NCBI GenBank assembly: GCA_031459385.1
Contig: JAVKIP010000001.1
Location: 288,001 to 352,000, forward strand
Length of the DNA: 64,000 bases
Direction: 5' to 3'
DNA from: Candidatus Fervidifonticultor secundus
GTDB lineage: Bacteria > Sysuimicrobiota > Sysuimicrobiia > Sysuimicrobiales > Humicultoraceae
Below, piece by piece: positions 10,176 to 31,280 of the stretch; the first letter of the stretch is position 1; the number at the start of each line of letters is the position of its first letter. The position numbers and the translations under genes are program-made. The notes below the pieces were generated by a model. It had not been told where the DNA came from. It ran no database searches and saw only the letters and a program-made list of their open reading frames with translations.

Positions 10176-10183
10176 GGTGGCCC

Positions 10184-11011
10184 TCACGGGGCGCCCAGGA
10201 GCATCCGGGGCGTCACCTTCGTCATCACCTCCAGGTCCCGCTCGCTGATCCCTTCGGCGCGCAGGCCGGCGACGAACGCCCGCAGCCCATCGACCGGGCA
10301 CGGATTGTGGGGTTGTCCGTAGTCTGTGGCCAGGACGGTGGAGCCGGCACCCACCTGGCGGATGTGCTCGGCGATTTGCCCCACGGACACGCTACCCCCG
10401 TCCGGCCGCGTGCTCAGGAGGCACCGCTCGAAGAACACGCCGCGCCGTGCCAGGTCGCGCTGGGCTTCGACGTCCAGCCAGGTCAGGTGCGTCTCCGGAT
10501 GGGTGATGAGTACCTTGCGCACCCCAGCGGCCAGAGCGGCGGTCACCAACACCTCGATCTCTGCCCCGGACAGATGGCCCGTGCCGAGGATGACGTCGGC
10601 GGTCGCAATCAAGCGCAGGATCTCGTGCACCTCCGGTCGTAGCTGGCCTGCGGCGTCCAGGATGCGCATGCCGTTGCCCTCGCCGTAGAACCGGCGGTGG
10701 TTCCAGGCCGCCTGTGTGGGCATCCAGATCTCCCTGGCCCCCAGTCTGAGCGCCGTCTCCACTGCCGCGGGGTTTAGCCCGCCGACGGGGTCGTTAAGCA
10801 CCAGTCCGCCGAACACCCGGGCGCCGGGTACCGCCTGCGTCGCCAGGAGCGCGCGTTCGACCGTCGAACCGTGGTGGCTCTTGAGCAGCACGCCAGCCAG
10901 CCCCGCGTCACGTGCGCGCCGCGCCAGCTCTAGGTCGTCCAGCCGGCGGGGCACGACGTCCGGCGCCGCGTGGACGTGCATGTCGAACGCGCCGGTCAGG
11001 TCTACCATCAC
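10184..11011 (-). CDS. Amidohydrolase-like metal-dependent TIM-barrel protein (DUF6282-like)
   Basis: DMHVHAAPD, LKSHH, GGLNP, WMPT, GTGHLS, ITHP, ATDYGQ. Confidence 0.8.
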   Translation of the reverse strand: MMVDLTGAFDMHVHAAPDVVPRRLDDLELARRARDAGLAGVLLKSHHGSTVERALLATQAVPGARVFGGLVLNDPVGGLNPAAVETALRLGAREIWMPTQAAWNHRRFYGEGNGMRILDAAGQLRPEVHEILRLIATADVILGTGHLSGAEIEVLVTAALAAGVRKVLITHPETHLTWLDVEAQRDLARRGVFFERCLLSTRPDGGSVSVGQIAEHIRQVGAGSTVLATDYGQPHNPCPVDGLRAFVAGLRAEGISERDLEVMTKVTPRMLLGAP

Positions 11012-16709: not shown

Positions 16710-16799
16710 TTGTCCGCAGCCTGCAGATCAGCGCGGCGACCGCTGTGGCCGGCGGTCTGCTCGGCGGCCTGATGGTGTATGCTGCCGTCAGCCCCGGCG

Positions 16800-17070
16800 C
16801 CCCGCGGTGCCCCGCTGCCGCCGCGGTTCCCTGCCATGCTGGCGCAGGCCGACCGGCTGGGGGCCGCGCTGGGCCCACCCCGGATGTCGCGCCCGTGCCA
16901 CAACGACCTGCTGCTGGCTAACTTCATCGACGACGGCGCGCGCCTGTGGATCATCGACTGGGAGTACGCGGCCATGGGCGACGTCTGGTTCGACCTGGGC
17001 AACTTCGCCATGCACCACCAGCGCTCCGACGACGAGGAACGGGTGCTGCTCGAGGCCTACGTCGGCTGCG
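16800..17070 (+). pseudogene. Internal fragment of a choline/ethanolamine kinase-like phosphotransferase
   Basis: PCHNDLLLANF and IIDWEYAAMGD..FDLGNF motifs present, but the N-terminal lobe and C-terminal helices are missing; boundaries approximate. Confidence 0.75.
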
Positions 17071-17260
17071 TCGCGCCCCGGGGCGATCGCCTCGGCGTTG
17101 GGGGCTTCCAGCAGGGGCTGGATCTGCCGCCGCGTGGACGTGATCAGCTCGCTGACGATGAGAGTTCGGCGGCGCGCGCTCATGGCAGCCCAGGTTGAGG
17201 ATGAACGCTGCGCGGAGGTTGCGCTGACGGGCGTCGTACGCTACCGCGCCGCCTGCGCCG

Positions 17261-18391
17261 TCAGGCGCCGGTCGTCACGGGAACCTGCACGCCCAGCTCC
17301 TCCAGCACCGCGCGGATCGCCGCCAGCGCCCTGCGGATGTGCCCCTCGTCGATTCGCCCGATGCACCCGATGCGGAACGAGTCGACGCGGGTGAGTTTGC
17401 CAGGGTAGATCAGGTAACCGCGCCGTGCCAGGCGGTCGTAGAGCGCCTGGAAGTCGAACCGCGGGTCGGACGGCACGAGAAAGGTGACGATGACCGGCCC
17501 CTGCAGCGCGTCGGGCAGCAGCGTGCGGAAGCCCAGTGCCCGCATGCCTTCCATCAGCACCTGGCAGTTGCGCCGGTAGCGGGCCAGGCGGGCGGGGCTG
17601 CCGCCTTCGGCGGCGTGTTCCTCCAGCGCCCGGTCCAAGGCGGCCAGTACGTGCGTGGGCGGCGTGAACCGCCACTGGCCCGTCTCCTCCATGAAGCGCC
17701 ACTGGTCGGCCAGGTCGAGGACCACCGACGGTGCGTTGCCCGCGGCGGTCTCCAGCGCCGTGCGGCGCGCGATGACGAACGTCGCGCCGGGCACCCCCTC
17801 GAGGCACTTGTTGGGTGACGAGACCAGGGCGTCGTACGGCATGGTGCGGGTGTCGCAGGGCAGGGCGCCGAAGGCGCTCATGGCGTCCACGAGCAGCCGC
17901 CGCCCGGCGGCTGCCACCACGTCGGCCACCTCGGCCAGCGGGTTGACGATGCCGGAGGTCGTCTCGGAGTAGACGACGGCCACGTGGGTGACGGCCGCGT
18001 CGGTGGCCAGGGCCGCGGCCGCCACCTGTGGGTCCACGGCCTGGTCCTCGGCCCATTCCAGGACGGCGTGCGCGCGTCCCAGGACCCGGCAGATCTGCAC
18101 CATGCGGCGCCCGTAAGCGCCGTTGGCGAGGACGAGCACCTTGCCGTCACGGGGCACGAACGTGCCGAGCATCGCCTCCACCCCGAAGGTGCCCGAGCCC
18201 TGCAGGAGCACCGCCTCGTGGGTCCCCTCGCCGCCGGCGAGCTCGACGAGCCGGCGCCGTACGCGGGCCGTCATGGCCACGAACGCCGCATCACGCGATC
18301 CCCAGTCGCGCAACATCGCCTCGCGGACCGTCCGCGAGGTGGTCAGCGGGCCCGGAGTCAGCAGCACGGGCACGTCGTCGGTACGCATCAT
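17261..18391 (-). CDS. phnW: 2-aminoethylphosphonate--pyruvate transaminase
   Basis: LLTPGPLTTS, DWGSRD, QGSGT, NGAYG, ETTSG, DAMSAFG, SSPNKCLEGVPG, QWRFTPPTH, IYPGKLT; ATGA overlap with the permease. Confidence 0.95.
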   Translation of the reverse strand: MMRTDDVPVLLTPGPLTTSRTVREAMLRDWGSRDAAFVAMTARVRRRLVELAGGEGTHEAVLLQGSGTFGVEAMLGTFVPRDGKVLVLANGAYGRRMVQICRVLGRAHAVLEWAEDQAVDPQVAAAALATDAAVTHVAVVYSETTSGIVNPLAEVADVVAAAGRRLLVDAMSAFGALPCDTRTMPYDALVSSPNKCLEGVPGATFVIARRTALETAAGNAPSVVLDLADQWRFMEETGQWRFTPPTHVLAALDRALEEHAAEGGSPARLARYRRNCQVLMEGMRALGFRTLLPDALQGPVIVTFLVPSDPRFDFQALYDRLARRGYLIYPGKLTRVDSFRIGCIGRIDEGHIRRALAAIRAVLEELGVQVPVTTGA

Positions 18392-20094
18392 CGCCTCCGC
18401 CAGGCCTGGGTGCGCCGGTCGAGCCCCCGCGCCACCAGCAGGTGGAGCAGCTTCACCGCCGCCGACGTGTAGAAGATCATCATGGCCATGGCCGCGGCGG
18501 CGCCCTGCTGGCCGGTGTCGTCCATGTAGACCACCGCGATGGACGCCAGGCGGGTGTGCGGCGCCCACAGGAAGATTACTGCCGAGACTGTGGTCATGGC
18601 GTTGACGAACAGGTAGACCGCGATGTCGAGGATGGCTGGCAGGCACACCGGCACCGTGACGGCCCAGAGCGTGCGGTAGAACGGTGCCCGCAGCGACGCC
18701 GAGACGGCTTCGAACTCGGCGTCGAGCTGCTTGAGGGCCGTGGTCGCGGTCAGGTGGCTCACGGTGTAGAAGTGGACGATGGTGTTGATCACCATGATGG
18801 CCAGGGTGTTGTAGAGGAACCCCAGGGGGTTGGCGGGGTGGTTGAAGAAGAAGATGTAGCTGATGCCCAGCACCAGCCCCGGTACGGCTAAGGGCAGCAT
18901 GGCCAGCAGCTGCGTCAGGACCCGCACCGGTCCCCACCCCCGGGTCTTCTCCAGCAGGTAGGCGGTGGTGAAGACGATGGCCGTGCCCACCAGGGCCGCG
19001 GCCCCCGCCATCCTCAGAGAGTTCGTGTACGGCAGCCAGCCCTGGGTCTCGAAGCGGGCAAAGTTGTAGTTTTTCAGCCCCAGCGCCAGGTTGTAGGGCC
19101 AGAACGAGACAAACGAGCCCCACGCGGCCACCGCCAGTAGGCCCACGATGGGCACGGCGATGAGGGTACAGATGCCGAAGAACGTCCAGTCCACCGCCGG
19201 GCGCGGCCGGGGCTGGAGCGGCACCGCCTGGGGCGTGAGGGTGGCCTGCTGGCGGAGGCGCACGTAGCGTTCGGCCAGGAACGAGAGCACCGCGGGGACC
19301 AGCAGGATCATGCTGACCACGGCACCGGTCTCGAAGTTCTGGCGGCCGAAGACCTGCTTGTAGACGTCGGTGGCCAGCACGTTGAACTGTCCGCCGATGA
19401 CCTTGGGAATGCCGAAGTCGGTGATGACCAGGGTGAACACCACGAAGGCGGCGCTCATGAGGCCGTACTTGGCGCCGGGCACTGTGACCGTCAGGAAGAT
19501 CCGCCGGGGTGTGGCGCCCAGCGCGGCCGCCGACTCGTACAGCCGCGCGTCGGCCGTGGCCAGGGCGGTGGTCAAGATCATCAGGGCGTGGGGGAAGCAG
19601 TAGACGGCCTCGGCCGCGACGATCCCCAGCGGCCCGTAGATGGAGTGACCCAGCAGCCAGTCCCGGAGCAGCCCCTGGTTGCCGAACAGGTAGACCAGGG
19701 CCAGGGCCTGCAGCAGCGACGGTGCCAGGATGGGGACCAGCGCCACCGCGCCGAAGACCGCCTTGGCCTTCATGCTCGTGCGGGTCAGCGCATAGGCGTA
19801 GAGGAACGCAGCCGGCAGCACCAGCACCGTGGTGACCACCGCCACCCCCATGCTGTGCCAGATGGACGACGCCAGCGCAGGACTCGCCAGGTACTCGGCG
19901 TAGTTGGCCAAGCCCACGAACCGCCCGTCCCGGTCGAGGAACGACTTGGACAGCAGCGCCCACAGGGGACCCGCCACGGTCACCGCCAGCCACAGCGCCG
20001 CACCGGCCAGGCCCGCGCGGGCGAGGCGCTCGTCGGCAGCCAGCTGCCGGCGCAGGGGCCGGGCCGCCCGGGGGGTCAGCGCCGTCGTGACCAC
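18388..20094 (-). CDS. Putative 2-aminoethylphosphonate ABC transporter permease (PhnU2-like, duplicated TM domain)
   Basis: LVYLFGNQG, ADARLYE, TDFGIPKVIGG, HFYTVSHLTA, FVNAMTTVSAV. Confidence 0.9.
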   Translation of the reverse strand: MVTTALTPRAARPLRRQLAADERLARAGLAGAALWLAVTVAGPLWALLSKSFLDRDGRFVGLANYAEYLASPALASSIWHSMGVAVVTTVLVLPAAFLYAYALTRTSMKAKAVFGAVALVPILAPSLLQALALVYLFGNQGLLRDWLLGHSIYGPLGIVAAEAVYCFPHALMILTTALATADARLYESAAALGATPRRIFLTVTVPGAKYGLMSAAFVVFTLVITDFGIPKVIGGQFNVLATDVYKQVFGRQNFETGAVVSMILLVPAVLSFLAERYVRLRQQATLTPQAVPLQPRPRPAVDWTFFGICTLIAVPIVGLLAVAAWGSFVSFWPYNLALGLKNYNFARFETQGWLPYTNSLRMAGAAALVGTAIVFTTAYLLEKTRGWGPVRVLTQLLAMLPLAVPGLVLGISYIFFFNHPANPLGFLYNTLAIMVINTIVHFYTVSHLTATTALKQLDAEFEAVSASLRAPFYRTLWAVTVPVCLPAILDIAVYLFVNAMTTVSAVIFLWAPHTRLASIAVVYMDDTGQQGAAAAMAMMIFYTSAAVKLLHLLVARGLDRRTQAWRRR

Positions 20095-20100
20095 GGCGGC

Positions 20101-21180
20101 TCAGTCGCCGGGGAAGACGCGGACGCGGTCAGCAGGCACGGACACGGTGAGGGTCCGGCCCGGTGCCAGGTTCACCTCGCGGTGCAGGTGCGCGGGAACG
20201 TCGGCACGGAGGGCGGCGGCATCCGCTGCGGCCGGCCGGAGGGTGGCCCGGTAGAAGGATCCCAGGAAGTCGACGGCGACCACCTCGGCTGCGATGGTGT
20301 TGGGGGCACCGGTACGGGCGCCGCGAACGTCCACGTCCTCGGGGCGGAAGCAGACGCGCACCGGGCTCCCCGCCGACAGGCCGTCGGCAGGGGCGCAGGT
20401 CAGTTCTGTGGCACCGACACGCACGCGGTCAGGGCGCAGCAGGGTACCGCGGAGGAAGTTCATCTCGCCTACGAAGTCGGCGACGAAGGAGGTGGCAGGG
20501 TGTTGGTAGACGTCCATGGGCGTGCCGATCTGCTCGATGACGCCATGGTTCATGACCGCGATGCGGTCAGCCATGGTCAGGGCCTCCTCCTGATCGTGGG
20601 TGACCAGGATCGTCGTCACGCCCAGCTGGCGTTGCAGGTGGCGGACCTCGTGCCGCAGCCGTACCCGCAGGCGCGCGTCCAGTGCCGACAGCGGTTCGTC
20701 CAGGAGCAGGAGGCTCGGCGACGGCGCCAGGGCCCGGGCCAGCGCCACCCGCTGCTGCTGGCCGCCCGACAGCTGCGCGGGGTACTTGGTCCGCTCGCCC
20801 TGGAGGCCCACCAGGGCCAGCAACTCCTCCACCCGGGCGCGGATCTGGGCCCGGGTGAGCCCTCGGCCCTGGAGGCCGTAGCCGACGTTGTCGAAGACCG
20901 TCAGGTTGGGGAACAGGGCGTACGACTGGAAGACGATGCCGAAGTCGCGACGTGCTGGCGGCAGGCCGGAGATGTCGCGTCCTTCCCTGAGGACACGGCC
21001 GCGGGTCTGGACCTCCAGGCCCATGATGATCCGCAACAGCGTGGTCTTCCCGCACCCTGAGGGGCCGAGCAGGCAGACGAACTCGCCCCGGCCGACGTCG
21101 AAGCTGACGTCCCGCAGCGCCACGAACGCCCCAAACGTCTTCCAGATCTGCTCGACCTGGAGGTAACGGGCGTCGTGCAT
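20101..21180 (-). CDS. Putative 2-aminoethylphosphonate ABC transporter ATP-binding protein (PhnT2-like)
   Basis: [39 protein letters not shown]-like C-terminus. Confidence 0.9.
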
Positions 21181-21281
21181 GGTGGCAGCCAGGACGGCCC
21201 TGCCGGCCGCGGCCTCACCGCTGACCGGCCCGGGGCTGGTGCCGGTGCGACCAGGCCCCGGGCACGGCAGGCGATCTGGGG

Positions 21282-22328
21282 CTACCGGGTGGGTTTGCCC
21301 TCGTAGCGGCGCACCCACTCCTTGAGGATGCGGTCACGGTTCTTCGCCATCCACTCGAAGTCGTTCTTGATCATCTTCGCTTCGCCGTCGGGCGGGTAGA
21401 ACGGCGGGAGGTTGGACATACCCGGCATCCCCACGATGGCGTACCACTGGTTGTACATCTCCATGGCTCTGCGGCTGACCGAGAAGTCGACCAGGCGGCG
21501 GGCAGCAGCCAGGTTGCGCGTCCCGCGGTGGATGGCCGTCGCCTCCATGTCCCACCCCGCGCCTTCCCTGGGGACGATGACGTCGATGGGCGCGCCTTCC
21601 TGCTTCAGCCGCGCGCCCCGCATGTCGAAGCCGATGCCCAGGGTGAACTCCCCCCGCGCCGCCTGGACGCAGGGCGCCGAGCCCGAATGGGTGTAGTGGC
21701 CGATGTTGTCGTGGACCTGGTCCATGAACTTCCAGCCGTCCTGCTCGCCGAACAGCTGGAGCCACGCCGAGACCGTCAGGAACCCGGTGCCCGAGGAGTT
21801 GGGGTTGGGCATGACCAGCAACCCCTTGTAGATGGAGTTGGTCAGGTCCTTCCACGACTGCGGCCGCCGGATGCCGCGCCGGGCCGCCTCCCGGGTGTTG
21901 AAGCACACCACCGAGAGGAAGGCGTCCATGCCGGTCCACGTCATGGGGTTCTTGCTGCTGCGGAACTGGGGCTTGAGCTGCTCGGCGCCTCGCGGGGTGT
22001 AGGGCTCGATCATGCCCAGCTCCTCGAAGAGGATGATGCTGGTCACCGCCAGCCCCCAGATGACGTCGGCCCGGGGGTTGGCGCGCTCAGCCAACAGGCG
22101 CGCGGTGACGACACCCGTCGAGTCCCGCACCCAGTCGATGACGATGCCCGGGTTCTCGCGCTCGAAGGTTTCCTTGTAGGGCCCGAGCTGGTCGTTCTCC
22201 AGCGCCGTGTAGACGGTCAGCCGGGTGACCTGAGCGCGGGCCTCGCCCAGCAGGCCCACGGCCAGGGCAGCGGCAACCACCGAGACCGCCAGGTACTGCG
22301 CTGTACGCGTCCACCGTCGTGCCGGCAT
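21282..22328 (-). CDS. Putative 2-aminoethylphosphonate ABC transporter substrate-binding protein (PhnS2-like)
   Basis: [48 protein letters not shown]. Confidence 0.9.
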
Positions 22329-22407
22329 AGTCACCCCTCCCGGACGGAACGGTCTGTGGCGCTTCCATTCCCTACGCCGTGCGCAATCCCTTGCCGCTCG
22401 CATCGCC

Positions 22408-23874
22408 CTACCCCGGCAGGCGCATGCGGATGCTTTTGACCTGCGTGTAGCTCAACAGCTCCTCCAGGCACTCCTCCCGCCCGATGCCGCTCTGCTTCAC
22501 CCCGCCGTAGGGCACGCCCAGGGCGTGGCCCCCCGGGATGTTGACCCACACATACCCCGCTTCGAGCCGGCGAGCCACCCGCAGCGCCCGGGCAGAGTCG
22601 CGGGTGTAGATTGCCGCGCTCAGCCCGTAGATGACCGCATTCGCCTGGCGGAGCATCTCCTCCTCGTCGTCCCACGTCAGGACGGCGATCACCGGGCCAA
22701 AGATCTCCTCCTGGGCGATGCGCATCTGTGGCCGCACGCCGTCGAACAGCGTGGGCTGCACGAAGAAGCCCCGGCGCAGCGCCGGATCCTCGGGCGGGCC
22801 GCCGCCGTAGAGGAGGCGGGCGCCCTCGCGGCGGCCGGCCTCGATGTATTCCAGGACCTTCTCATACTGTTCCCGCGACACCAGGCACCCGACCTGGCTG
22901 TCGTCGGCCTCGGGCAGGCCCAGACGCAGCACCCGCAGCCGGGCCAGCAGGGCGTCGACGAACGCGTCGTGCAGGTCGCGGTGGACGAACACCCGGGAGG
23001 TGCTGCTGCACGACTGCCCGGCGCGGTTGAGGTTCATGGCTCCCACCGCCGCCTCGGCCGCCTCGTCGGGCGGGACGTCCGGGAACAGGATCAGCGGGTT
23101 CTTGCCGCCCAGCTCCAGCGTGACCACCTTGAGCCCATCGGCGGCGGCCCGCATGACCGCCCGCCCGGCTTCCACCGAGCCGATCAGGGCGACCCGCCGC
23201 ACCAGGGGGTGGCGGACCAGGGCCGCGCCGGTCGTGGGACCGTCGCCGGTCACGATGTTCACGACGCCCGGCGGGAACAGGTCCGCTACCAGGCGGCCCA
23301 GCACCAGGGACGAGAGGGGGGCCTGCTCGGGCGGTTTGATGACCACGGTGTTGCCGGCCGCCAGCGGCGCCGCCAGCTTCTCGGCCGCGAACCGCAGCGG
23401 GTGGTTGTACGGGTTGATCTTGGCCACGACGCCGTAGGGCTCGCGCACCGTGCACGCAAACTCGCCGAGGCCGGTAGGGTACGTTTCCCCTTTGAGTTCG
23501 GGGGTCAGCCCGGCGAAGTAGTCCAGCGCCTCCGCCGCCCAGTCCACGTCGCGGCGCATGCCGGTGATCACGTTGCCCGAGTTGAGGGCGTCCAGCCGCG
23601 CCAACACGTCGCGGTGCTGGCGGAGGGCGGTGGCCAGCTGACGCAGCCGCACCGCGCGCTCGGCCGGCGGGGTGGCGGTCCAGGCGGGAGCTGCCGCGTG
23701 CGCTGCAGTGACGGCGAGATCGACGTCGGCTTCGTCGGCCAGCGGGACGTGGGCCAGCACTTCCCGGGTGGCGGGGTTGTAGGTCGGCAGGGTACGGCCG
23801 GACCGGCTCTCTTCCCAGCGCCCGCCGATGAACAGCCGGCCGACCGGCAGCTCGTCGAGCAGCGTCACGGACAT
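22408..23874 (-). CDS. Aldehyde dehydrogenase (candidate phosphonoacetaldehyde dehydrogenase)
   Basis: PYNHP, KPPEQ, LELGGKNP, AGQSCSS (catalytic Cys), EEIFGP, PYGGVKQSG. Confidence 0.9.
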   Translation of the reverse strand: MSVTLLDELPVGRLFIGGRWEESRSGRTLPTYNPATREVLAHVPLADEADVDLAVTAAHAAAPAWTATPPAERAVRLRQLATALRQHRDVLARLDALNSGNVITGMRRDVDWAAEALDYFAGLTPELKGETYPTGLGEFACTVREPYGVVAKINPYNHPLRFAAEKLAAPLAAGNTVVIKPPEQAPLSSLVLGRLVADLFPPGVVNIVTGDGPTTGAALVRHPLVRRVALIGSVEAGRAVMRAAADGLKVVTLELGGKNPLILFPDVPPDEAAEAAVGAMNLNRAGQSCSSTSRVFVHRDLHDAFVDALLARLRVLRLGLPEADDSQVGCLVSREQYEKVLEYIEAGRREGARLLYGGGPPEDPALRRGFFVQPTLFDGVRPQMRIAQEEIFGPVIAVLTWDDEEEMLRQANAVIYGLSAAIYTRDSARALRVARRLEAGYVWVNIPGGHALGVPYGGVKQSGIGREECLEELLSYTQVKSIRMRLPG

Positions 23875-24078
23875 GTCCAGCCCCTGGGGCGTCGCCCCTG
23901 GCGGTAGTGTCGTGAGGTCATGCGCGTATCGCCTCGCGTGCTTCCCGCAGGGCCGCCCGCGCGGCTTCCATGGCCCAGGAGCACCGACCCCCAACCCATG
24001 GGGAAGTTCCACGTACCGGCGGCCCGTCGTGTCCCATGCCCGGTACCCATGCCCGCGCCCTCCCCGCCGCGCACAGTG

Positions 24079-24945
24079 CTACCCGGGGTGCGGGACTGCC
24101 AGCCGCTCGGGCGGCAGCGTGCGCTCCGGCGGCCCGTCGTAGAACTCCGGTTTCTGCAGCTCCAGGTCCAGCGGTTGCACGATGGGTGCCTGCGTCGAGG
24201 CCCGCCAGCCGCGCTCGCGGTGCATCTCCTCGTAGGTGTGGGCGATGAGCCCTACCGTCCGCGACAGCAGGTAGACGCCCTTGATCAGGTCCACGTCGAA
24301 CCCCATGTCCATGCAGATGGCGCCCACCGCCCCGGGGCCGTTCAGGTAGAGGCGCCGACCCCAGAACTCCTCGGTGGCCGCCTCGATGGCCCGGGCCATG
24401 GCCACGTGTCGCCCGGCCACCCCGTAGGCGTCGGCCAGCTCCAGCAGGCGCGCGGTGCGCGGGTCGACGATGTGCTGCGCATGGTGGTAGCCAGGCAGCC
24501 GTCGGCCCTCCCGCCGCGCCTCGCCGGCGACGCGGCGCGCGGTCTCCTCGAGGGTGAGACCTTCTTGGTCCATGCGGGCGATCGCCTCCTTGAACAGCGC
24601 CGCGGGCCGGTCGGCCGTGCCGTGGAGCGCGCCGAGGGCGAGCAGCCCGCCCGCCACGCCCACGTGCAGCGGCACACCGCCCGAGGTGACGAAGCGGCAG
24701 GCCGCCGACGACGGCGAGAACGCGTGCTCGCACTGGTTCACCAGAATGGCATCGAGCATGCGGGCGTGGTGCTCGGGGGGCAACTCGCCGCGCCAGACCA
24801 GGTAGGCCATCTCGGCGAACGAGACCCGACCCGTCAGGTCGTTGATGTTGTACCCGCGGACCACCACGCGGTCCCGGGTCTTGTAGGCGATGGCGGTACG
24901 CCAGTGGAATGGCTCCCGGCGCGGTGTCGCTGCGGCTGGTTCCAT
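24079..24945 (-). CDS. Citrate synthase-fold protein (citryl-CoA lyase family) with altered active site
   Basis: WRTAIA...VVVRGY..DL.G..SFAE...L.WRGELP N-terminus, DPRTARL, SRTVGLIAH..EE, YDGP; GGAGG RBS. Confidence 0.85.
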   Translation of the reverse strand: MEPAAATPRREPFHWRTAIAYKTRDRVVVRGYNINDLTGRVSFAEMAYLVWRGELPPEHHARMLDAILVNQCEHAFSPSSAACRFVTSGGVPLHVGVAGGLLALGALHGTADRPAALFKEAIARMDQEGLTLEETARRVAGEARREGRRLPGYHHAQHIVDPRTARLLELADAYGVAGRHVAMARAIEAATEEFWGRRLYLNGPGAVGAICMDMGFDVDLIKGVYLLSRTVGLIAHTYEEMHRERGWRASTQAPIVQPLDLELQKPEFYDGPPERTLPPERLAVPHPG

Positions 24946-24990
24946 GGACGGGACCTCCTCCGGTGCTCTGCGCGCGTCGGCCGGCGCCGG

Positions 24991-25824
24991 CTATCGCGGC
25001 GCCGGCCGGACGCCGGCGACGGTGGCGTCGTCGGACCTCAGGTAGACACGCTGCGGGTCGAGCTCTTCGCGCAGCACCCGCAGGTCCTCGGCCTCTGGCG
25101 GTGCCACCGTGCCCACGTCCGCCGCCACCTCGGGCCGGAACCCTGTCTGGGCCAGGACGTCGTCCACGCGCACCCCCGGCATCAGGCGCGTCAGGCGCAG
25201 CGTGCACGTCACGGGATCGCTTTCGAGCACCGCCAGGTCGGTGACCACGGTCACGGCGAAGTCGGGAGACAGCCCGGCCCGCTGGCGGGCCCCGGGGCCG
25301 TCGAGGAACCCGGGGCTGGTGATGTAGTCGCACCGCTCGGGGAACCGGCGCCTCTCGTGGTGGGCGATGATGAGCAGCCGTCGGCAGTGGCTGGCCATAT
25401 CGTTGGCACCGCCGCTGCCCGGCAGCCGGCGGCGCAGCGCGCCCGGCGGGCCGATCTGCGTCGAGTTGATGTTGGCGTGGCGGTCGATCTGCGCGCCGCC
25501 CAGGAAGCCCACGTCGATCAGCCCCCGCTGGAGCAGGCCGCCCAGCACCTCCCGCAGCGTGCCCAGGCGCATCGCACGCGCCATGACCTTGGGGTCAGAG
25601 ACCGAGATCGGTGTCGGCCGCACCAGCGGCGCGATGACGCCGCTCTCGATGACCATGACGACACCCGGGGCGTGGCGGCGCTGCGCCAGGGCCGTGGCCA
25701 GCAGGGGCAGACCCGTGCCGACGAAGACCACCTCGCCGTCGCGCAGGCGGCGGGCGGCCTCGATCACCATGAGCTCCTGGTGACTGAAGGCGCGCGCCCG
25801 GTCGGTGCCCGTCGCCTGAGGCAC
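24991..25824 (-). CDS. Family I CoA-transferase beta subunit (GctB/CatJ-like)
   Basis: VFVGTGLP, MVIESG (catalytic Glu), GFLGGAQID, RLPGSGGAND, VVTDL. Confidence 0.9.
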   Translation of the reverse strand: MPQATGTDRARAFSHQELMVIEAARRLRDGEVVFVGTGLPLLATALAQRRHAPGVVMVIESGVIAPLVRPTPISVSDPKVMARAMRLGTLREVLGGLLQRGLIDVGFLGGAQIDRHANINSTQIGPPGALRRRLPGSGGANDMASHCRRLLIIAHHERRRFPERCDYITSPGFLDGPGARQRAGLSPDFAVTVVTDLAVLESDPVTCTLRLTRLMPGVRVDDVLAQTGFRPEVAADVGTVAPPEAEDLRVLREELDPQRVYLRSDDATVAGVRPAPR

Positions 25825-25867
25825 TACCGCGCCCTCCGCGCCACCGGCGCCGCCGCCACGTCCGGCA

Positions 25868-26863
25868 CTACAGCACCTCCCGCATGGCCGCGCGCAGCGC
25901 CGCCAGGCGCGCCGGGCCCGCGGTCCGCGCCAGGTAGTCGTCGAAGGACGGACAGTCCCACACCGTCGCCTGGAGGTACGCGTCTACCGCGGCCGGTCCG
26001 GCGCGGGCCGCCTCCTGGTAGCGGGCGACTTCGAGCGCGTCGTAGTCGTAGTGGCCGTAGACCGACGTGGGGTAGGCGCCGAACGGCTGGACCACCACGG
26101 CGTCGACGTACATGAAGGGCACCGTCGTCCGCTCGGGGGCGGCCCGGATCTCGTCGGTCGAGATCAACTCCTCGCACGAGACGACCACGGCCCGCGAGGC
26201 GCGCAGCATCTCGGGCTCGTGGGTGGCGAAGCCTTCGATGACGAGGTTGCCGAGCGGGTCGGCGCGCTGGACGTGCACGATGGAGACGTCGGGCTGCAGC
26301 GCCGGCACCAGGACCACGGGCTCGCCCGGCGCCCAGGGGTTGTCGACGACCACGGCCTTGCCGGGCCCGCGCGGCGCGGGCGTGTCGGCGCCCGGCGCCG
26401 CGGCACCCCGCCCCCCGTGGGGCGCCGCACCCGCAGGGGGGACCCCCAGCATGTCGGAGCCCAGCAGGCTGCGCGTCGGCATGAACGGCACGCCCATCTC
26501 ACCGGCCAGGAAGCGGCTGACCATGGCCAGGTGGCTGTAGTCCTCATGCTCCAGGGTGCCGTCCTCGATGCCGCGGCGCCAGCAAAACGTCACCCCGAAC
26601 CGCTCCAGGTTGCCCGAGCCCGACTCGGTGCGCCGGACCAGGCCGGCGCCGACCAGCTGGTCCATGCCGATCGACAGGTTGCAGCCCACCACGGTCAGGC
26701 CGCCGATGCGCTGGCGGATGATCTCGTGGGTCAGCGCCTGGGGACAGCGACCGATGTTCTGGCCGCCCATGCCCAGCACGCTGCCCGGCCGCACGAAGCG
26801 CGCGACCGCCTCGGCTGCTGTCATGACTTTGGGCGCGGTGCGGGCCGCGGCGGGAACTGCCAC
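25868..26863 (-). CDS. Family I CoA-transferase alpha subunit (GctA/CatI-like)
   Basis: KVMTAAEAVARFV, GVPFMPTRSLLGSD, PALQPDVSIVHVQRAD, PFGAYPT; GTG 26863 after GGAGG. Confidence 0.9.
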   Translation of the reverse strand: MAVPAAARTAPKVMTAAEAVARFVRPGSVLGMGGQNIGRCPQALTHEIIRQRIGGLTVVGCNLSIGMDQLVGAGLVRRTESGSGNLERFGVTFCWRRGIEDGTLEHEDYSHLAMVSRFLAGEMGVPFMPTRSLLGSDMLGVPPAGAAPHGGRGAAAPGADTPAPRGPGKAVVVDNPWAPGEPVVLVPALQPDVSIVHVQRADPLGNLVIEGFATHEPEMLRASRAVVVSCEELISTDEIRAAPERTTVPFMYVDAVVVQPFGAYPTSVYGHYDYDALEVARYQEAARAGPAAVDAYLQATVWDCPSFDDYLARTAGPARLAALRAAMREVL

Positions 26864-26947
26864 TGCCGACCTCCAGGGGCACGCTGGCTTGCCTGCATTA
26901 TGGGAGGGGGCCTGGATAATGTCAAATAAGAGATGCGCGACGTTTTC

Positions 26948-26960
26948 TAAGAAGATATTA
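26948..26960. promoter_or_regulatory. LysR recognition box T-N11-A (TAA-N7-TTA)
   Basis: TAAGAAGATATTA in the AT-rich divergent intergenic region, 3 nt before the LysR ATG. Confidence 0.6.
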
Positions 26961-26963
26961 TAG

Positions 26964-27926
26964 ATGGCGATGGCGCGCGCGCCCCTGCCCCTGGGCCCCC
27001 TGCGCACGTTCCACCAGGTGGTGGTCCACCAGGCTTTCAACCGGGCCGCGCGCGCCCTGGGCGTCACGCAGCCCGCGGTCACCCAGCAGATGCGCCGGCT
27101 CGAGCGGGCCACAGGCGTCACCCTCTTCGAGCGCGACGGCCGCCGGCTGGTGCTCACCGAGGCCGGCCGGGCCCTGGCCGTCTACACGCAGCGCATCTTC
27201 GACCTGGTGGACGCCGCGCAGGACGCCCTGGCCGGCGCCCGCGAGCTGCGCACCGGCATCCTGCGGGTGGGCGCCAGTCGCACGGCCGGCGCCTACTACA
27301 TCGCCGACCTGCTCGACCGCTTCAAGCAGCGCTACCCCGGCGTGAAGGTGAGTTTGACGGTGGGGAACTCCCAGCTCGTCCTCGACCGGATCCGGGAGTT
27401 CTCACTGCACGCCGGACTCGTCGCCGGCCGGCCCGACGACGCGGCGCTGGTGACCCGGCCGCTGGTCCGGGACCGGATGCTCGTGGTGCTGCCCCCGCGC
27501 CACCCGCTGGCGCAGCAGGCCCGCGTCTCCATTCGCGACCTGCAGGGCTGGCCCCTCATCATGCGCGAGCCGGGCTCCACGACGCGCCACCTCATCGAAC
27601 AGGCTGCGGCGGCACGCGGGGTGCTCGTCGACGCCGCGATGGAGCTCGAGAGCAACGAGGCCATCAAGAGCGCGGTGGCCGACGGGATCGGGGTGGCGAT
27701 CATGGCCCACGCCGCCGTGGCCCAGGACCTGGCGAGCGGCCGTCTGGTCGGCCGCCCGTTGCGCGAGGCCCTGGCGCTGGACTTCGCGCTGGTCTACCAC
27801 CGCGACCGGGTGCTGGCGCCCGTGCTGGCGGCGTTCCTGGCGTTGCTGCCGGCGCGCGCACGCCGCGGCGCCGGTGCCCCCGGAGGAAAGCACACGCCGG
27901 GGCAGGAACCAAGGGGCCGGCGTTAG
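26964..27926 (+). CDS. LysR-family transcriptional regulator of the phosphonate locus
   Basis: FNRAARALGVTQPAVTQQMRRLE, LFER, LTEAG, REPGSTTR, ESNEAIK. Confidence 0.93.
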   Translation: MAMARAPLPLGPLRTFHQVVVHQAFNRAARALGVTQPAVTQQMRRLERATGVTLFERDGRRLVLTEAGRALAVYTQRIFDLVDAAQDALAGARELRTGILRVGASRTAGAYYIADLLDRFKQRYPGVKVSLTVGNSQLVLDRIREFSLHAGLVAGRPDDAALVTRPLVRDRMLVVLPPRHPLAQQARVSIRDLQGWPLIMREPGSTTRHLIEQAAAARGVLVDAAMELESNEAIKSAVADGIGVAIMAHAAVAQDLASGRLVGRPLREALALDFALVYHRDRVLAPVLAAFLALLPARARRGAGAPGGKHTPGQEPRGRR

Positions 27927-27943
27927 AACCCGGAGGCGTCGCG

Positions 27944-29308
27944 ATGGACCGCGTCGTGCCCAAACCGTCCGAAGGCGACCTGAACCTCTCCCCCCGGCGC
28001 ACGGCCTGGCAGGCCGCGATGCTCGACGACGCCACCCGCGCCCTCCTGGACGAGGACGCCCGCTACTTCCTCCACCAGGCACTCTCGACCCCCTGCCTGA
28101 ACGCGCTGCGCCGCTGCGAGGGCATCTACCTCGAGGACCTGCAGGGACGCCGCTACATGGACTTCCACGGGAACAGCGTCCATCAGGTCGGCTTCGGCAA
28201 CCCCGCGGTGGTGGCGGCGGTCAAGGCGCAGCTGGACGCGCTGAGCTTCTGCCCGCGGCGGTTCACCAACGAGCCGGCGGTGGCGCTGGCCAGGACGCTG
28301 GCGCGCCTGGCGCCCGGCGACCTGCACAAGGTGCTGTTCTGCCCCAGCGGCACGGGCGCCATCGGCATCGCGCTGAAGCTGGCCCGCGCGGTCACCGGCC
28401 GTTACAAGACCATCTCCATGTGGGACGCGTTCCACGGTGCCTCCCTCGACGCGATCTCGGTGGGCGGCGAGGAGCTGTTCCGCCGCGACGCCGGCCCGCT
28501 GCTCCCCGGCACCGAGCACGTGCCGCCCCCTGACCCCTACCGCTGCGTGTGGGACTGCCAGACGCGCGGCGGGTGCGACCTGAAGTGCGCTGGCTACATC
28601 GAGTACGTGCTCGAGAAGGAAGGCGACGTGGCGGCCGTGATCGCGGAGACGGTGCGGGCGACGCCGGTGATTCCGCACCGCGCGTTCTGGTCGACCGTGC
28701 GGGCGGCCTGCGACCGCCACGGGGCGCTGTTGATCCTCGACGAGATCCCCACGGCGCTGGGCCGCACCGGCGCCATGTTCGCCTGCGAGCACTACGACGT
28801 CGTTCCCGACATCCTGGTGCTGGGAAAGGGCCTGGGTGGCGGCATCCTCCCCCTGGCCGCGGTCCTTGCCCGCGAGCGTTTCGATGTGGCGGCCGACCGG
28901 GCGCTGGGCCACTACACGCACGAGAAGAGTCCCGTGGCCGCCGCCGCGGCCCTGGCCACGCTGCAGTACATCGAGGACCACGGCCTGGTCGCGCACGCCC
29001 GCACGCTGGGCCGCTATGCCCTGGACCGGCTGCGCGCGATGCAGGCGCGCCACCCGTTGATCGGCGACGTGCGGGGGCTGGGGTTGCTGCTGGGCGTCGA
29101 GCTGGTCACCGACCGCGGCACACGCGCGCGGGCCACCGCTGAGGCCGAGGCGGTCTTGTACGCGGCACTGTCCCGCGGCCTGAGCTTCAAGGTCAGCATG
29201 GGGAACATCCTGACCCTGAGCCCGCCGCTCGTGATCACCCGGGCCGAGATGGACCGCGCCCTGGACATCCTGGACGAGAGCCTGACGGAGGTCGAGCGGA
29301 GCCGATGA
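27944..29308 (+). CDS. pbfA: (R)-1-hydroxy-2-aminoethylphosphonate ammonia-lyase-like class III PLP enzyme
   Basis: SEGDLNLSPRR, FLHQALSTPCL, DFHGNSVHQ, PRRFTN, WDAFHGASLD, LGKGLGGG, LGHYTHEKSP, FKVSMGN; located in a phnW cluster. Confidence 0.85.
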   Translation: MDRVVPKPSEGDLNLSPRRTAWQAAMLDDATRALLDEDARYFLHQALSTPCLNALRRCEGIYLEDLQGRRYMDFHGNSVHQVGFGNPAVVAAVKAQLDALSFCPRRFTNEPAVALARTLARLAPGDLHKVLFCPSGTGAIGIALKLARAVTGRYKTISMWDAFHGASLDAISVGGEELFRRDAGPLLPGTEHVPPPDPYRCVWDCQTRGGCDLKCAGYIEYVLEKEGDVAAVIAETVRATPVIPHRAFWSTVRAACDRHGALLILDEIPTALGRTGAMFACEHYDVVPDILVLGKGLGGGILPLAAVLARERFDVAADRALGHYTHEKSPVAAAAALATLQYIEDHGLVAHARTLGRYALDRLRAMQARHPLIGDVRGLGLLLGVELVTDRGTRARATAEAEAVLYAALSRGLSFKVSMGNILTLSPPLVITRAEMDRALDILDESLTEVERSR

Positions 29309-29964
29309 TCGTCCAGCCCGACCTGGCGCCGGGGCAGACGCTACTCTACACGCTGCGCCACGGCCTCACCGAGCTGAACCGCTCCAAGCGCACCGGCGGC
29401 CGCCTGGACGTGCCGCTGACCGCGGAAGGTCGCCGGCAGGCCGAGGAGGCCCGCGAGCAGTTCGCGGGCACGGCGCTCGACGTCGTGATCGCCTCCAGCC
29501 TGGGCCGCGCGATTGAGACCGCCGAGATCGTCACGGGGTGGGCGCGGGAGCAGATGATCATCGACGATCTGGCGGTCGAGCGCAGCTTCGGCCAGATGGA
29601 AGGCCTCACCCAGGACGAGATCCGCGAGCGGTTCCCGGACGTGATCTACGTGCCGATCGACCACATCCGCTACTCCCTCAACCCGCCGGGTGGGGAGTCG
29701 TTCGAGGCGCTCCGCACCCGGGCCCGGGCGTTCCTGGCCCGCGTGCTCGCGGCCCACCGCGGCAAGCGCGTGCTGGTCTCCTCGCACCAGAACTTCATGC
29801 AGCAGCTCCACGGCGAGCTGCGGGGCCTCGACCCCTATGCGGCGCTTAAGTACGACATCCTGAACCTGGAGCTGAACCAGTTCCACCTGGACGCCGACGG
29901 TCGGCTGCTCGCCCACCGCGTCTACCAGCTCTGCCCCGACGCCTCGAAGTACCCCTCGTTCTGA
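29305..29964 (+). CDS. Histidine phosphatase (PGAM) family protein
   Basis: LRHG, DVPLT, SSLGRAIETA, ERSFGQMEG, PGGES, SSH; ATGA overlap with pbfA. Confidence 0.88.
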   Translation: MIVQPDLAPGQTLLYTLRHGLTELNRSKRTGGRLDVPLTAEGRRQAEEAREQFAGTALDVVIASSLGRAIETAEIVTGWAREQMIIDDLAVERSFGQMEGLTQDEIRERFPDVIYVPIDHIRYSLNPPGGESFEALRTRARAFLARVLAAHRGKRVLVSSHQNFMQQLHGELRGLDPYAALKYDILNLELNQFHLDADGRLLAHRVYQLCPDASKYPSF

Positions 29965-29981: not shown

Positions 29982-31280
29982 GTGGCAGCGGGCACCCGGC
30001 GGCTGCAGGCGGTGGTCGAGGCCCTGGCCGCGCGCCTGTGGCAGCGATTCCCCCCGCAGGTCCGCGGGCTGCGGCGGGTGGGCCGCGAGGCCGAGTTCCC
30101 GGTGGTCTGGCCGGACGGCCGGGCCGGCGAGGTTGCGCGCCTGTGGGACGGTCTGCGCGCCGACGCTGGTGCCCGCGTCCGGTACGATGACCCCGACCGG
30201 CGGACGATCATCGAGCGCGTGGACATCGGTGATGTCGGCTACGAGGTCGAGGTCGGCCGGGCCACCGTCGAGGTGGTGCTGCCGCCCGCCGACGATCTGC
30301 ATGGGCTGGCCGCGGCCTCCGCGGTGGCTGTGGGCCGGCTGGCGCGCGTAGCGGCCGCGGAGCGCCTGCGTATCCTCGGGTACGGCATTCAGCCCCGGGC
30401 GCGGGCCCGACCCGGCCTGATCACTCCCAAGCGCCGCTACGCCGCGTTCCACCGCAGTGTCGGCCGGCCCTGGCTGCCGTTCACGACCACGGCCAGCGAC
30501 CAGGTGCACGTGGACGTCGGGCGCGACGAGCTCATCGAGGTGACCAACGTCATGAACCTGCTGTCAGGCGCCATCATCGCGCTGACGGCCAACTCGTCCG
30601 TCTACGCAGGACAGGTCGGGCGCTTCTGCTCCGGCCGGGAAGGGCTGCTGCGCGTGCTGGGCGACCGCCACGGCATGCCGCCCCGGCCCTTCGCAGACCT
30701 GGAGGATTACGTGTGGTTCGTCTGCCAGCAGCCGTGTGCCGTGCTGCGGCGGGGCCACGACTACGTGGCGTACGGCCGGCCGCTGGCGGCATACGTCGGG
30801 GCGCGCGGGCCAGACCTCGACGCGTTCCTCTGGCACGAGCACTACCTCTGGTACAGCGCGCGGCCGCGGGCGCAGCACGCCACCGTCGAGGTCCGGCCGG
30901 CCTGCCAGCAGCCGCCCGACGACCCCCTGGCGGCTGCCGCCCTGGCCCTCGCGCTGGTGGAGGGCTGGCGCGAGGCGCGGGCGCTGGTGGCCGACGCGCT
31001 CGGCACCGACGCGCGGGGACCCGATGCCTGGCAGGCGATGGCGGCCTACCGGCAGGCGGCGATCCGCGACGGCATCCGCGCGGCTGAGCCTGCCCCGCGG
31101 TTCCTGGCCCGGCTGCTGGACGTGGCGGAGGCGGCTCTGCGCCGGCGCGGGCGCGGCGAAGAACGCCTCCTCGCCGGCCTCCGGCGCCGGGTGGAGCGGC
31201 GCCGGCTGCCGGCTGACGACGCCGCGGCGGCGTTCCGGCGCGGCGGCGCGGCGGCGCTGGTGGCGACCCGGGCGCTGTAG
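29982..31280 (+). CDS. Glutamate--cysteine ligase family (GCS2/EgtA-like) carboxylate-amine ligase
   Basis: VGREAE, TASDQVHVD, ALTANS, ARPR, TVEVRPACQQP. Confidence 0.75.
   Translation: MAAGTRRLQAVVEALAARLWQRFPPQVRGLRRVGREAEFPVVWPDGRAGEVARLWDGLRADAGARVRYDDPDRRTIIERVDIGDVGYEVEVGRATVEVVLPPADDLHGLAAASAVAVGRLARVAAAERLRILGYGIQPRARARPGLITPKRRYAAFHRSVGRPWLPFTTTASDQVHVDVGRDELIEVTNVMNLLSGAIIALTANSSVYAGQVGRFCSGREGLLRVLGDRHGMPPRPFADLEDYVWFVCQQPCAVLRRGHDYVAYGRPLAAYVGARGPDLDAFLWHEHYLWYSARPRAQHATVEVRPACQQPPDDPLAAAALALALVEGWREARALVADALGTDARGPDAWQAMAAYRQAAIRDGIRAAEPAPRFLARLLDVAEAALRRRGRGEERLLAGLRRRVERRRLPADDAAAAFRRGGAAALVATRAL

Follow-up and report, generated by a model that had tools for sequence, protein, structure and literature searches.

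A coenzyme A gene module in an aminophosphonate locus of Candidatus Fervidifonticultor secundus: a candidate route of C-P bond cleavage through phosphonoacetyl-CoA

The stretch of DNA analysed here (the window) comprises 64,000 nucleotides of contig JAVKIP010000001.1 of Candidatus Fervidifonticultor secundus, positions 288,001 to 352,000, and contains at 17261-29964 an aminophosphonate locus with two divergent arms. An earlier note had described this layout, and family profile scans recovered all of the genes that it named, arranged as it claimed. The left arm, on the minus strand, is tightly packed and runs from the alpha-subunit gene of a coenzyme A (CoA) transferase to phnW; the plus strand carries lysR, pbfA, a His_Phos_1 gene and a ligase gene. 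The CoA module, made up of the transferase pair, a citrate-synthase-fold protein resembling citryl-CoA lyase (CCL-like protein) and an aldehyde dehydrogenase (ALDH), lies in one operon with phnS2T2U2 and phnW (Table 1). PhnW, PbfA, PhnS2, PhnT2 and PhnU2 all score over the cut-offs of their equivalog models, and on these family-level assignments PhnS2T2U2 would serve for import, and PhnW and PbfA would both yield phosphonoacetaldehyde. The locus probably directs a LysR-controlled catabolism of 2-aminoethylphosphonate and (R)-1-hydroxy-2-aminoethylphosphonate, in which phosphonoacetaldehyde would be converted to phosphonoacetate, then to phosphonoacetyl-CoA, and finally to acetyl-CoA and phosphate. 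This is a real and conserved ending of aminophosphonate catabolism that has apparently gone undescribed.

The G+C content of the window is around 70%, and as a result raw lists of open reading frames are full of long false frames. The real genes were fixed by family scans, and their limits within the locus were called with a GC3-minus-GC2 suffix score; the start positions are approximate. The start of the transferase alpha gene was set at the ATG of MTAAEAV, within an open frame that extends to 27157. A 910-residue open frame at phnW, which runs over phnU2, was rejected as a high-GC artefact.

No known enzyme that cleaves carbon-phosphorus (C-P) bonds is encoded in the window, in agreement with the earlier note, which had seen no phnX, phnA, phnZ or phnGHIJ gene there. 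The same holds for the whole genome (G000; 3.30 Mb in 59 contigs, 97.6% complete, 5.5% contamination), in which no PhnX, PhnA, PhnZ or PhnJ exceeds the curated cut-offs, although the absence is not absolute because the genome is a draft. The best matches in G000 are 54 bits for PhnX (cut-off 220), 29 bits for PhnA (cut-off 408) and 120 bits for PalA (cut-off 374), and PhnJ and Phn-HD (PhnZ type) have zero matches. The PhnA model recovered true PhnA genes in other genomes. The PhnX model is without a positive control, as it gave no match over its cut-off in any search, but it did recover sub-threshold PhnX-like genes in phosphonate contexts. The weak matches in G000 were considered as divergent C-P enzymes and rejected: the PhnX match is a PpaX-like HAD protein, the two PalA matches are PrpB-like lyases, and the weak matches to PhnX, PalA and PhnA also included a 638-residue protein without a family match. 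Some module clusters contain a protein of the alkaline-phosphatase superfamily PF01663 (L016:13789-14865 and L095:4467-5300, where L numbers denote loci and G numbers genomes). It was rejected as a hidden PhnA, having no NCBIfam match at E <= 1e-15 and no counterpart in the window cluster.

The proposed route turns on the CCL-like protein, which belongs to the citrate-synthase C-terminal fold. Its close relatives number in the hundreds, with 62-93% identity among the 120 listed, and in their sources they are named citryl-CoA lyase or citrate synthase. The NCBIfam naming is ambiguous, because the protein falls just below the cut-off of the citryl-CoA lyase model NF004866 (237.8 bits; cut-off 245) and passes two other citryl-CoA lyase subfamily models, NF004869 (216.5 bits; 212) and NF004868 (202.3 bits; 193). 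The best solved relative is the citryl-CoA lyase of Hydrogenobacter (6hxp), with a profile match of 188 bits. A Foldseek search with an AlphaFold (AF2) model of the protein (pLDDT 84, pTM 0.83) likewise placed 6hxp first (E = 2e-15, TM around 0.7), followed by the CCL modules of ATP-citrate lyase and by citrate synthases.

In an alignment of 30 CCL-like sequences spanning all lineages, H74, H108, H155, R163 and R229 are invariant (30/30) and align to His238, His274, His320, Arg329 and Arg401 of citrate synthase, in the numbering of the pig enzyme. The Asp of the N-V-D motif, presumably Asp375 in that numbering, is lost in every one of the 30 and replaced by Pro or Val, the motif aligning without gaps to N-G-P, N-A-V or N-D-P. 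Two further motifs are rewritten, HGGAG to HGTADRPA and GFGHR to G[FY]HH[AP]QH, and a conserved C-terminal tail of around 30 residues (QPLDLxLQxPEFYDGP) has been added. As a control, all four ordinary CCL paralogues examined in the same phylum retain DHG, HGGAG, GFGHR and N[VI]DG, and have no tail. With the Asp lost, and the fold and the anion-binding pocket kept, the CCL-like protein lacks a defining feature of citryl-CoA lyases while remaining in their fold. Judged from the alignment, it is a distinct clade with clade-specific remodelling of the active site, and we propose that it is a phosphonoacetyl-CoA C-P hydrolase. It could hardly be an ordinary citryl-CoA lyase that forms with the transferase a citrate-lyase- or citrate-synthase-like pair unrelated to C-P chemistry: the names of its relatives, the match to 6hxp and the near-threshold NF004866 score speak for that reading, whereas the lost Asp and a context of phosphonate metabolism, not of the tricarboxylic acid cycle, speak against it. 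Asp mutants of ATP-citrate lyase (D1026A and D541A, according to the titles of solved entries) were used for capturing substrates and citryl-CoA, and this mutated Asp is presumably that of N-V-D.

The ALDH of the window has the usual catalytic Glu and Cys motifs (ELGGKNP and GQSCSS). Among the family models it scores highest with betaine-aldehyde dehydrogenase (466 bits, under the cut-off of 669), and its closest solved structures are enzymes of the same name (394 bits). We propose that it oxidizes phosphonoacetaldehyde to phosphonoacetate, a PhnY-like role. Both transferase subunits match PF01144 and belong to the family I CoA-transferases of GctAB type; the best solved relative of each is glutaconate CoA-transferase GctAB of Acidaminococcus fermentans (PDB 1POI). 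The query 'viesg' of the GctB-like subunit aligns to 'IVESG' of GctB (1POI_B), the Glu of which we take to be the catalytic residue. Glutaconate CoA-transferase takes acetyl-CoA as CoA donor. The two-subunit organization and the aligned ESG Glu are common to GctAB and the present pair. However, the sequence similarity is moderate, the acceptor proposed here is phosphonoacetate and not a C5 dicarboxylate, and the present transferase is encoded beside a CCL-like gene.

When 185,579 species genomes were searched with a pattern scan, 97 relatives were found, of which the best 80 loci were kept and compared with the window proteins by tblastn. The co-occurrence that the earlier note had asked after is present in several phyla: CoA-transferase and CCL-like genes are linked to aminophosphonate genes. 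Among loci with at least 2.2 kb of upstream sequence, all 58 outside spirochaetes and Chloroflexi have the transferase pair immediately upstream of the CCL-like gene, namely 14/14 from CSP1-3-like metagenome-assembled genomes (MAGs), 2/2 from Rokubacteria/Methylomirabilota, 2/2 from other MAGs and 40/40 from actinomycetes. The corresponding counts are 0/10 for spirochaetes and 0/2 for Chloroflexi; in one Chloroflexi locus (L037) both subunits are present but farther off. An ALDH gene lies at most 4.5 kb from the CCL-like gene in 40/40 actinomycete loci and in 10 of the 19 CSP1-3-like loci, where many contigs break off early. Of the 80 loci, 45 contain one or more phosphonate markers (CSP1-3-like 10/19, spirochaetes 6/12, Chloroflexi 0/3, actinomycetes 26/40, and two other groups 2/3 and 1/3).

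Several of these markers hold at family level. L064 encodes PhnS (488 bits; cut-off 310) and PhnU (364 bits; cut-off 247), L070 encodes PhnU (321 bits; cut-off 247), and L028, from a Methylomirabilota MAG, encodes PbfA (683 bits; cut-off 525) and PhnW (391 bits; cut-off 361). L063 encodes an FAD oxidoreductase of TIGR03364 (405 bits; cut-off 285), the family of PbfD1 according to the available text of PMC10590968. Lineages differ in gene order and transporter family, so the linked genes have not been inherited as a single block. A fused protein of around 810 residues, FAD oxidase plus GcvT-like aminomethyltransferase, recurs beside the module (L064:10900-13353 and L070:10246-12672; more weakly in L008 and L020), and it may demethylate N-methylated aminophosphonates.

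The distribution of the module was then set against that of PhnA in 94 genomes of the phylum, with a CCL-like orthologue defined by a score of at least 498 bits and coverage of the tail. The module is present in 23 genomes and PhnA over its cut-off in 12, and the two never occur together. PbfA occurs in 29 genomes, as a cut gene in two of them and over the cut-off in the other 27. Of these 29, 19 have the module, two have a variant of it that is described below, six have PhnA, one has a PhnX-like gene (G024, 173 bits) and one has none of these (G059). In all six PhnA cases PhnA and PbfA are on the same contig. These counts include two genomes flagged as unpublished (G021 and G029); without them the module is found in 21 of 92 genomes, PbfA in 27 and both in 17, and the PhnA figures are unchanged. 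The alternation can be followed within a single taxonomic family, where genera g21 and g23 have PhnA (12/13 genomes) and genera g22, g24, g25 and g26 have the module (9/10). It is also visible within a shared cluster frame of a glutamine-synthetase-like ligase, a class-III aminotransferase, a Liv-type importer and PbfA, which contains either CoA-transferase, CCL-like protein and ALDH (L095 and L016) or a CysK-like pyridoxal-phosphate enzyme and PhnA (L092 and L094). Two relatives, G010 and G024, have PhnX-like genes (173-178 bits) where others have the module. As to the arrangement of the PhnA genes, L092 and L094 (G064 and G065) have the CysK-like frame, or as in L093 (G072) PhnA directly follows PbfA, in each case with no ALDH.

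Outside the phylum, module-bearing actinomycete genomes have PhnX over its cut-off in 0/10, PhnA in 1/10 and PhnJ in 1/5, and a complete 9.1-Mb Nonomuraea chromosome with the module contains none of the three. Only three of the 71 genomes sampled in the taxonomic family of Nonomuraea carry the module, too few for a cross-tabulation with PhnA. Cultured carriers of the module belong to Nonomuraea, Catenulispora, Actinomadura, Streptosporangium and Sciscionella.

Across lineages the slot of the aldehyde oxidizer is filled by three unrelated kinds of enzyme. The CSP1-3 relatives have a betaine-aldehyde-dehydrogenase-like ALDH, and the actinomycetes have a GucD-like ALDH that is only 36-38% identical to the CSP1-3 type. 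In L028 the slot is held by an aldehyde:ferredoxin oxidoreductase (PF02730 and PF01314; L028:5687-7959), which lies between the CCL-like gene and pbfA and is preceded by a small ThiS/MoaD-like protein.

A variant cluster without CoA-transferase is found in G008 and G011, both of the window's own taxonomic family. Its order is LysR, an HD protein, a CCL variant and a SauS-like acylating aldehyde dehydrogenase, followed by PbfA and an ATP-binding cassette (ABC) importer. The CCL variant is 37% identical to the CCL-like protein and keeps the tail; its motif is N-V-I, with Ile at the Asp position, and Gln stands at the equivalent of His320. The acylating dehydrogenase scores best with the model of the sulfoacetaldehyde dehydrogenase SauS, NF047625, at 503 bits (cut-off 600); with models of acetaldehyde type it reaches 313-370 bits. 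The HD protein has 190 residues and zero matches to NCBIfam models. SauS interconverts sulfoacetaldehyde and sulfoacetyl-CoA (PMC10413351, available text). The variant enzyme is a close relative of SauS, and the reaction proposed for it is the phosphonate analogue; it differs in scoring under the equivalog cut-off, in its phosphonate rather than sulfonate context, and in that the direction would be oxidative. A CCL-like enzyme acting on phosphonoacetyl-CoA predicts just this situation, with two ways from aldehyde to acyl-CoA, both of them linked to a CCL-like gene and to PbfA. Together with the three kinds of oxidizer and the mutual exclusion of module and PhnA, the variant points to phosphonoacetyl-CoA as the intermediate. 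The CoA route put forward in the earlier note is thereby partly supported, and the computational checks that the note proposed came out in its favour; that scheme leaves the spirochaete members, discussed below, unexplained.

The route can be pictured as four steps. The ALDH would first oxidize phosphonoacetaldehyde to phosphonoacetate, and the GctAB-like transferase would then move CoA from acetyl-CoA onto phosphonoacetate. In the third step the CCL-like protein would cleave the C-P bond of phosphonoacetyl-CoA with the thioester enolate as leaving group; the enolate could be stabilized by the retained counterpart of His274, and the His and Arg residues of the oxaloacetate pocket could hold the phosphonate. 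Finally, phosphate and acetyl-CoA would be released, and acetyl-CoA would recharge the transferase and close the CoA cycle, giving the same net reaction as PhnA, phosphonoacetate and water to acetate and phosphate. In the variant clusters the acylating dehydrogenase would produce phosphonoacetyl-CoA directly, and the thioester would be retained as net acetyl-CoA. From what is generally known of these enzymes, the chemistry would mirror the cleavage of citryl-CoA, phosphorus taking the position of the quaternary carbon, and the loss of the acidic Asp would be understandable because a dianionic group lies adjacent. At the level of the pathway, comparative genomics supports the route well; the enzyme-level mechanism is plausible. 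On balance we favour a widespread fourth type of hydrolytic C-P cleavage, in which a citrate-synthase-fold enzyme, its catalytic Asp exchanged for a site that handles the phosphonate, expels phosphate from the phosphonoacetyl-CoA enolate; the spirochaete members in PepM operons would then serve in damage control.

A number of observations weigh against this reading. Every step beyond phosphonoacetaldehyde is one that we infer, and the enolate would need a proton donor, the usual Asp being gone. The ALDH of the window is not a PhnY orthologue (TIGR03250, 233 bits against a cut-off of 636). No phosphonate marker lies within 10 kb in 3/3 Chloroflexi and 14/40 actinomycete loci, and several of the markers that were found are based on tblastn identities of only 25-35%. 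Related genomes are not independent, so the alternation of module and PhnA represents a few switches and not a statistic. Nor is the swap gene for gene, since the PhnA-type clusters of the phylum are without ALDH. PhnY over its cut-off is found in none of the 94 phylum genomes, a result that includes the PhnA genomes and is thus uninformative on an exchange of the ALDH. One module-bearing actinomycete (G005) has two copies of PhnA, far from the module.

The 12 CCL-like loci of spirochaetes are never accompanied by the transferase, and four of them (L032, L036, L051 and L056) lie beside or inside phosphonate biosynthesis operons, which encode phosphoenolpyruvate mutase (PepM) fused to a nucleotidyltransferase, phosphonopyruvate decarboxylase (Ppd) and a 2-aminoethylphosphonate transaminase. 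SauS-like genes are present in five of five spirochaete genomes, and a homologue of the CoA-transferase beta subunit in one of the five; the SauS-like genes, however, sit in beta-alanine/pyrimidine or transaldolase/carboxyltransferase contexts and so do not directly support a CoA-activating partner. The spirochaete CCL-like proteins in PepM operons may possibly guard against stray phosphonoacetyl-CoA, the only support for such damage control being the SauS-like genes elsewhere in those genomes. Two further spirochaete loci (L041 and L042) are near a PhnS2T2U2-like importer.

As to the details of these loci, the CCL-like gene lies at around 10000-10830 of each of L032, L036, L051 and L056, and in L036 the last 11 bases of the gene are shared with the beginning of pepM. 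At L104:9360-15124 and L101:9224-13721 (G101 and G102) the SauS-like gene is accompanied by a class-III aminotransferase, a carbon-nitrogen hydrolase and a xanthine/uracil permease; from their gene content, these clusters look like a breakdown of pyrimidine and beta-alanine via malonate semialdehyde. In L102 and L103 the SauS-like genes occur with a transaldolase-like protein and a carboxyltransferase.

The strongest rival, which we consider unlikely, makes the CCL-like protein a CoA-independent phosphonoacetaldehyde hydrolase, with ALDH and transferase, or the acylating dehydrogenase, turning the resulting acetaldehyde into acetyl-CoA. To the discredit of the route through phosphonoacetyl-CoA, a hydrolase of this kind predicts both cluster types equally well, ALDH with transferase or acylating ALDH alone. 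It also fits the complementarity with PhnA and PhnX-like proteins, accounts for loci without a CoA-activating enzyme, such as L041 and L042, and explains why a base for acetyl-CoA enolization is dispensable. However, all characterized members of the fold act on CoA thioesters, to our knowledge, and the acylating dehydrogenase of the variant scores best as sulfoacetaldehyde and not acetaldehyde type. To activate acetate, the transferase would depend on a CoA donor from elsewhere, and the cluster has no gene to regenerate one. Moreover, PhnX-type clusters are not known to need acetaldehyde genes, yet the transferase accompanies the CCL-like gene in all 58 loci counted above, and within the four spirochaete PepM/Ppd/transaminase operons a hydrolase of phosphonoacetaldehyde would destroy a pathway intermediate.

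A more doubtful possibility is that phosphonoacetyl-CoA is indeed the substrate of some other chemistry, either a C-to-O phosphoryl migration to an enol phosphate that a phosphatase would then hydrolyse, or a condensation with a keto acid, bound in the oxaloacetate pocket that has been kept, after which phosphate would be lost. The residues aligned to the oxaloacetate-binding His/Arg set are all invariant, as would suit it, and many clusters encode a phosphohydrolase, namely His_Phos_1 after pbfA in CSP1-3 relatives and the HD protein beside the CCL variant. But no phosphatase adjoins the module in the five actinomycete loci that were annotated gene by gene (L045, L064, L063, L070 and L086), G024 has the histidine phosphatase after pbfA despite having no module, and the clusters share no conserved enzyme for a second substrate.

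It is slightly less likely still that the module acts on something other than a phosphonate and simply neighbours the phn genes, for instance by converting malonate semialdehyde via malonyl-CoA to acetyl-CoA and CO2, or by treating sulfoacetate likewise. The SauS-like and class-III aminotransferase homologues in the spirochaete beta-alanine/pyrimidine clusters agree with this, as do the marker-free Chloroflexi loci (0/3) and the many Nonomuraea loci in which the module is accompanied just by an ABC importer whose specificity is uncertain. Against it stand the linkage to PbfA, PhnW and PhnS, which recurs with varied gene order and transporters in CSP1-3, Methylomirabilota and actinomycetes, the linkage to PepM in spirochaetes, the operon that the module shares with phnS2T2U2 and phnW in the window, and the exclusion of PhnA by the module among the 94 genomes. 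Furthermore, G000 would be left without other means of freeing phosphate from the phosphonoacetaldehyde made by PhnW and PbfA.

The proposed cleavage of phosphonoacetyl-CoA by the CCL-like protein has several partial parallels among known systems. In Sinorhizobium meliloti, PhnW, PhnY and PhnA convert 2-aminoethylphosphonate via phosphonoacetaldehyde and phosphonoacetate to acetate and phosphate; PhnA acts on the free acid and has a metal-dependent alkaline-phosphatase fold. The present locus resembles this system in its type of importer, PhnW, type of LysR, aldehyde-to-acid step and proposed net reaction. It differs in having neither PhnA nor a PhnY orthologue, and in that the proposed cleavage takes place on the CoA thioester. 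PhnX phosphonatase also starts from phosphonoacetaldehyde, but has an unrelated HAD fold and uses Schiff-base chemistry without CoA. In the cycles of malonate decarboxylase and citrate lyase, an acetyl thioester is traded for the acid substrate, which in its activated form loses a beta substituent via an enolate, and the acetyl thioester is regenerated, much as proposed here. Those enzymes, however, rely on an acyl carrier protein that bears a special prosthetic group, and their lyase or decarboxylase subunits are unrelated, where the present system would use free CoA and a citrate-synthase fold; they also lose CO2 or oxaloacetate where phosphate would be lost here. With citryl-CoA lyase, the CCL module of ATP-citrate lyase and citrate synthase (6hxp, 6z2h and 6hxl) the CCL-like protein has the fold and the His/Arg residues in common; the catalytic Asp, the HGGAG and GFGHR motifs, the tail and the phosphonate context set it apart.

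No CoA-dependent catabolism of phosphonates is described in the literature searched, a scope outside which subscription journals lie. The term 'phosphonoacetyl-CoA' occurs there only in the available text of a preprint on flavophos biosynthesis, as a predicted product that was not observed. The phnWYA genes are named as a cluster type in PMC10590968, and searches for CoA and citrate terms gave nothing relevant in the available text of that paper, PMC8154272, PMC12366243 and the review PMC10574752 (2023).

Phosphonates are a major pool of organic phosphorus, yet the known families of enzymes that cleave C-P bonds are few. If our reading is correct, this would be the first CoA-dependent catabolism of phosphonates and the first C-P-cleaving enzyme with the citrate-synthase fold, that is, a new reaction for a classic fold, and the widespread annotation 'citryl-CoA lyase / citrate synthase' would have to be corrected. 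The acylating variant would be the first route to conserve the energy of aldehyde oxidation. Surveys of phosphonate users count phnX, phnA, phnZ and phnJ and would then have missed whole lineages: it is the module, and not PhnA or a PhnX-like gene, that is found in 19 of the 29 PbfA genomes of the phylum, and many soil actinomycetes have it too.

Table 1. Features of the aminophosphonate locus in the window, and positions of the variant clusters
Feature	Coordinates	Strand	Basis
phnW, 2-aminoethylphosphonate:pyruvate transaminase; last left-arm gene	17261-18391	-	NF010006 532 bits (cut-off 296); TIGR02326 480 (401)
phnU2, fused ABC transporter permease	18388-20094	-	TIGR03262 775 bits, cut-off 593
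phnT2, ABC transporter ATPase; start uncertain, up to 21318	20101-21180	-	TIGR03265 512 bits, cut-off 458
phnS2, 2-aminoethylphosphonate substrate-binding protein; start uncertain, 22259-22403	21282-22403	-	TIGR03261 453 bits, cut-off 393
ALDH, NAD(P)-dependent, non-acylating	22408-23874	-	PF00171 512 bits
CCL-like protein P0001, citrate-synthase fold, 288 residues	24079-24945	-	PF00285 114 bits; NF004866 237.8 bits
CoA-transferase beta, GctB-like, IESG motif	24991-25824	-	PF01144 97 bits; 1POI_B 165 bits
CoA-transferase alpha, GctA-like; first left-arm gene	25868-26824	-	PF01144 88 bits; 1POI_A 161 bits
Divergent intergenic region, left arm / lysR; promoters and operator presumed	26825-26963		position only
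lysR, aminophosphonate-associated type	26964-27926	+	PF03466, PF00126; TIGR03339 245 bits, under cut-off 341
pbfA	27944-29308	+	NF049939 723 bits, cut-off 525
Histidine phosphatase, His_Phos_1	29305-29964	+	PF00300 154 bits
GCS2/YbdK-like carboxylate-amine ligase, beyond the range of the earlier note	30012-31280	+	PF04107 60 bits
Variant cluster (G011)	L096:9071-12007
Variant cluster (G008)	L100:556-3492

The right-arm genes of the window recur in related loci. LysR orthologues with 63-83% identity occupy the same position, and orthologues of the histidine phosphatase (79-89% identity) follow pbfA in L007, L008, L009, L012, L020 and L025. Because the phosphatase also follows pbfA in G024, it travels with pbfA and not with the CoA module. 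Orthologues of the GCS2/YbdK-like ligase are found in L007, L008, L012, L020 and L025 (57-82% identity) and in G024 (59%). In the G024 cluster (L097:4204-7045) a haloalkane-dehalogenase-like alpha/beta hydrolase gene is inserted between pbfA and the phosphatase and ligase genes. In other module clusters (L016, L023 and L024) a glutamine-synthetase-like ligase adjoins lysR, and an ATP-dependent amide ligase seems to be a recurrent companion of PbfA.

Two smaller features of the window may be added. The otherwise packed left arm contains a gap of 204 bases between the CCL-like and ALDH genes (23875-24078), which could hold an internal promoter or regulatory element. Next to the left arm, a short frame of 139 residues on the plus strand (16779-17198), similar to APH/choline-ethanolamine kinases, converges on phnW and matches just the C-terminal part of the profiles. 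A full-length relative of 313 residues lies beside the G024 cluster (L097:3260-4201), and a fragment is found between the two transferase genes of L037.

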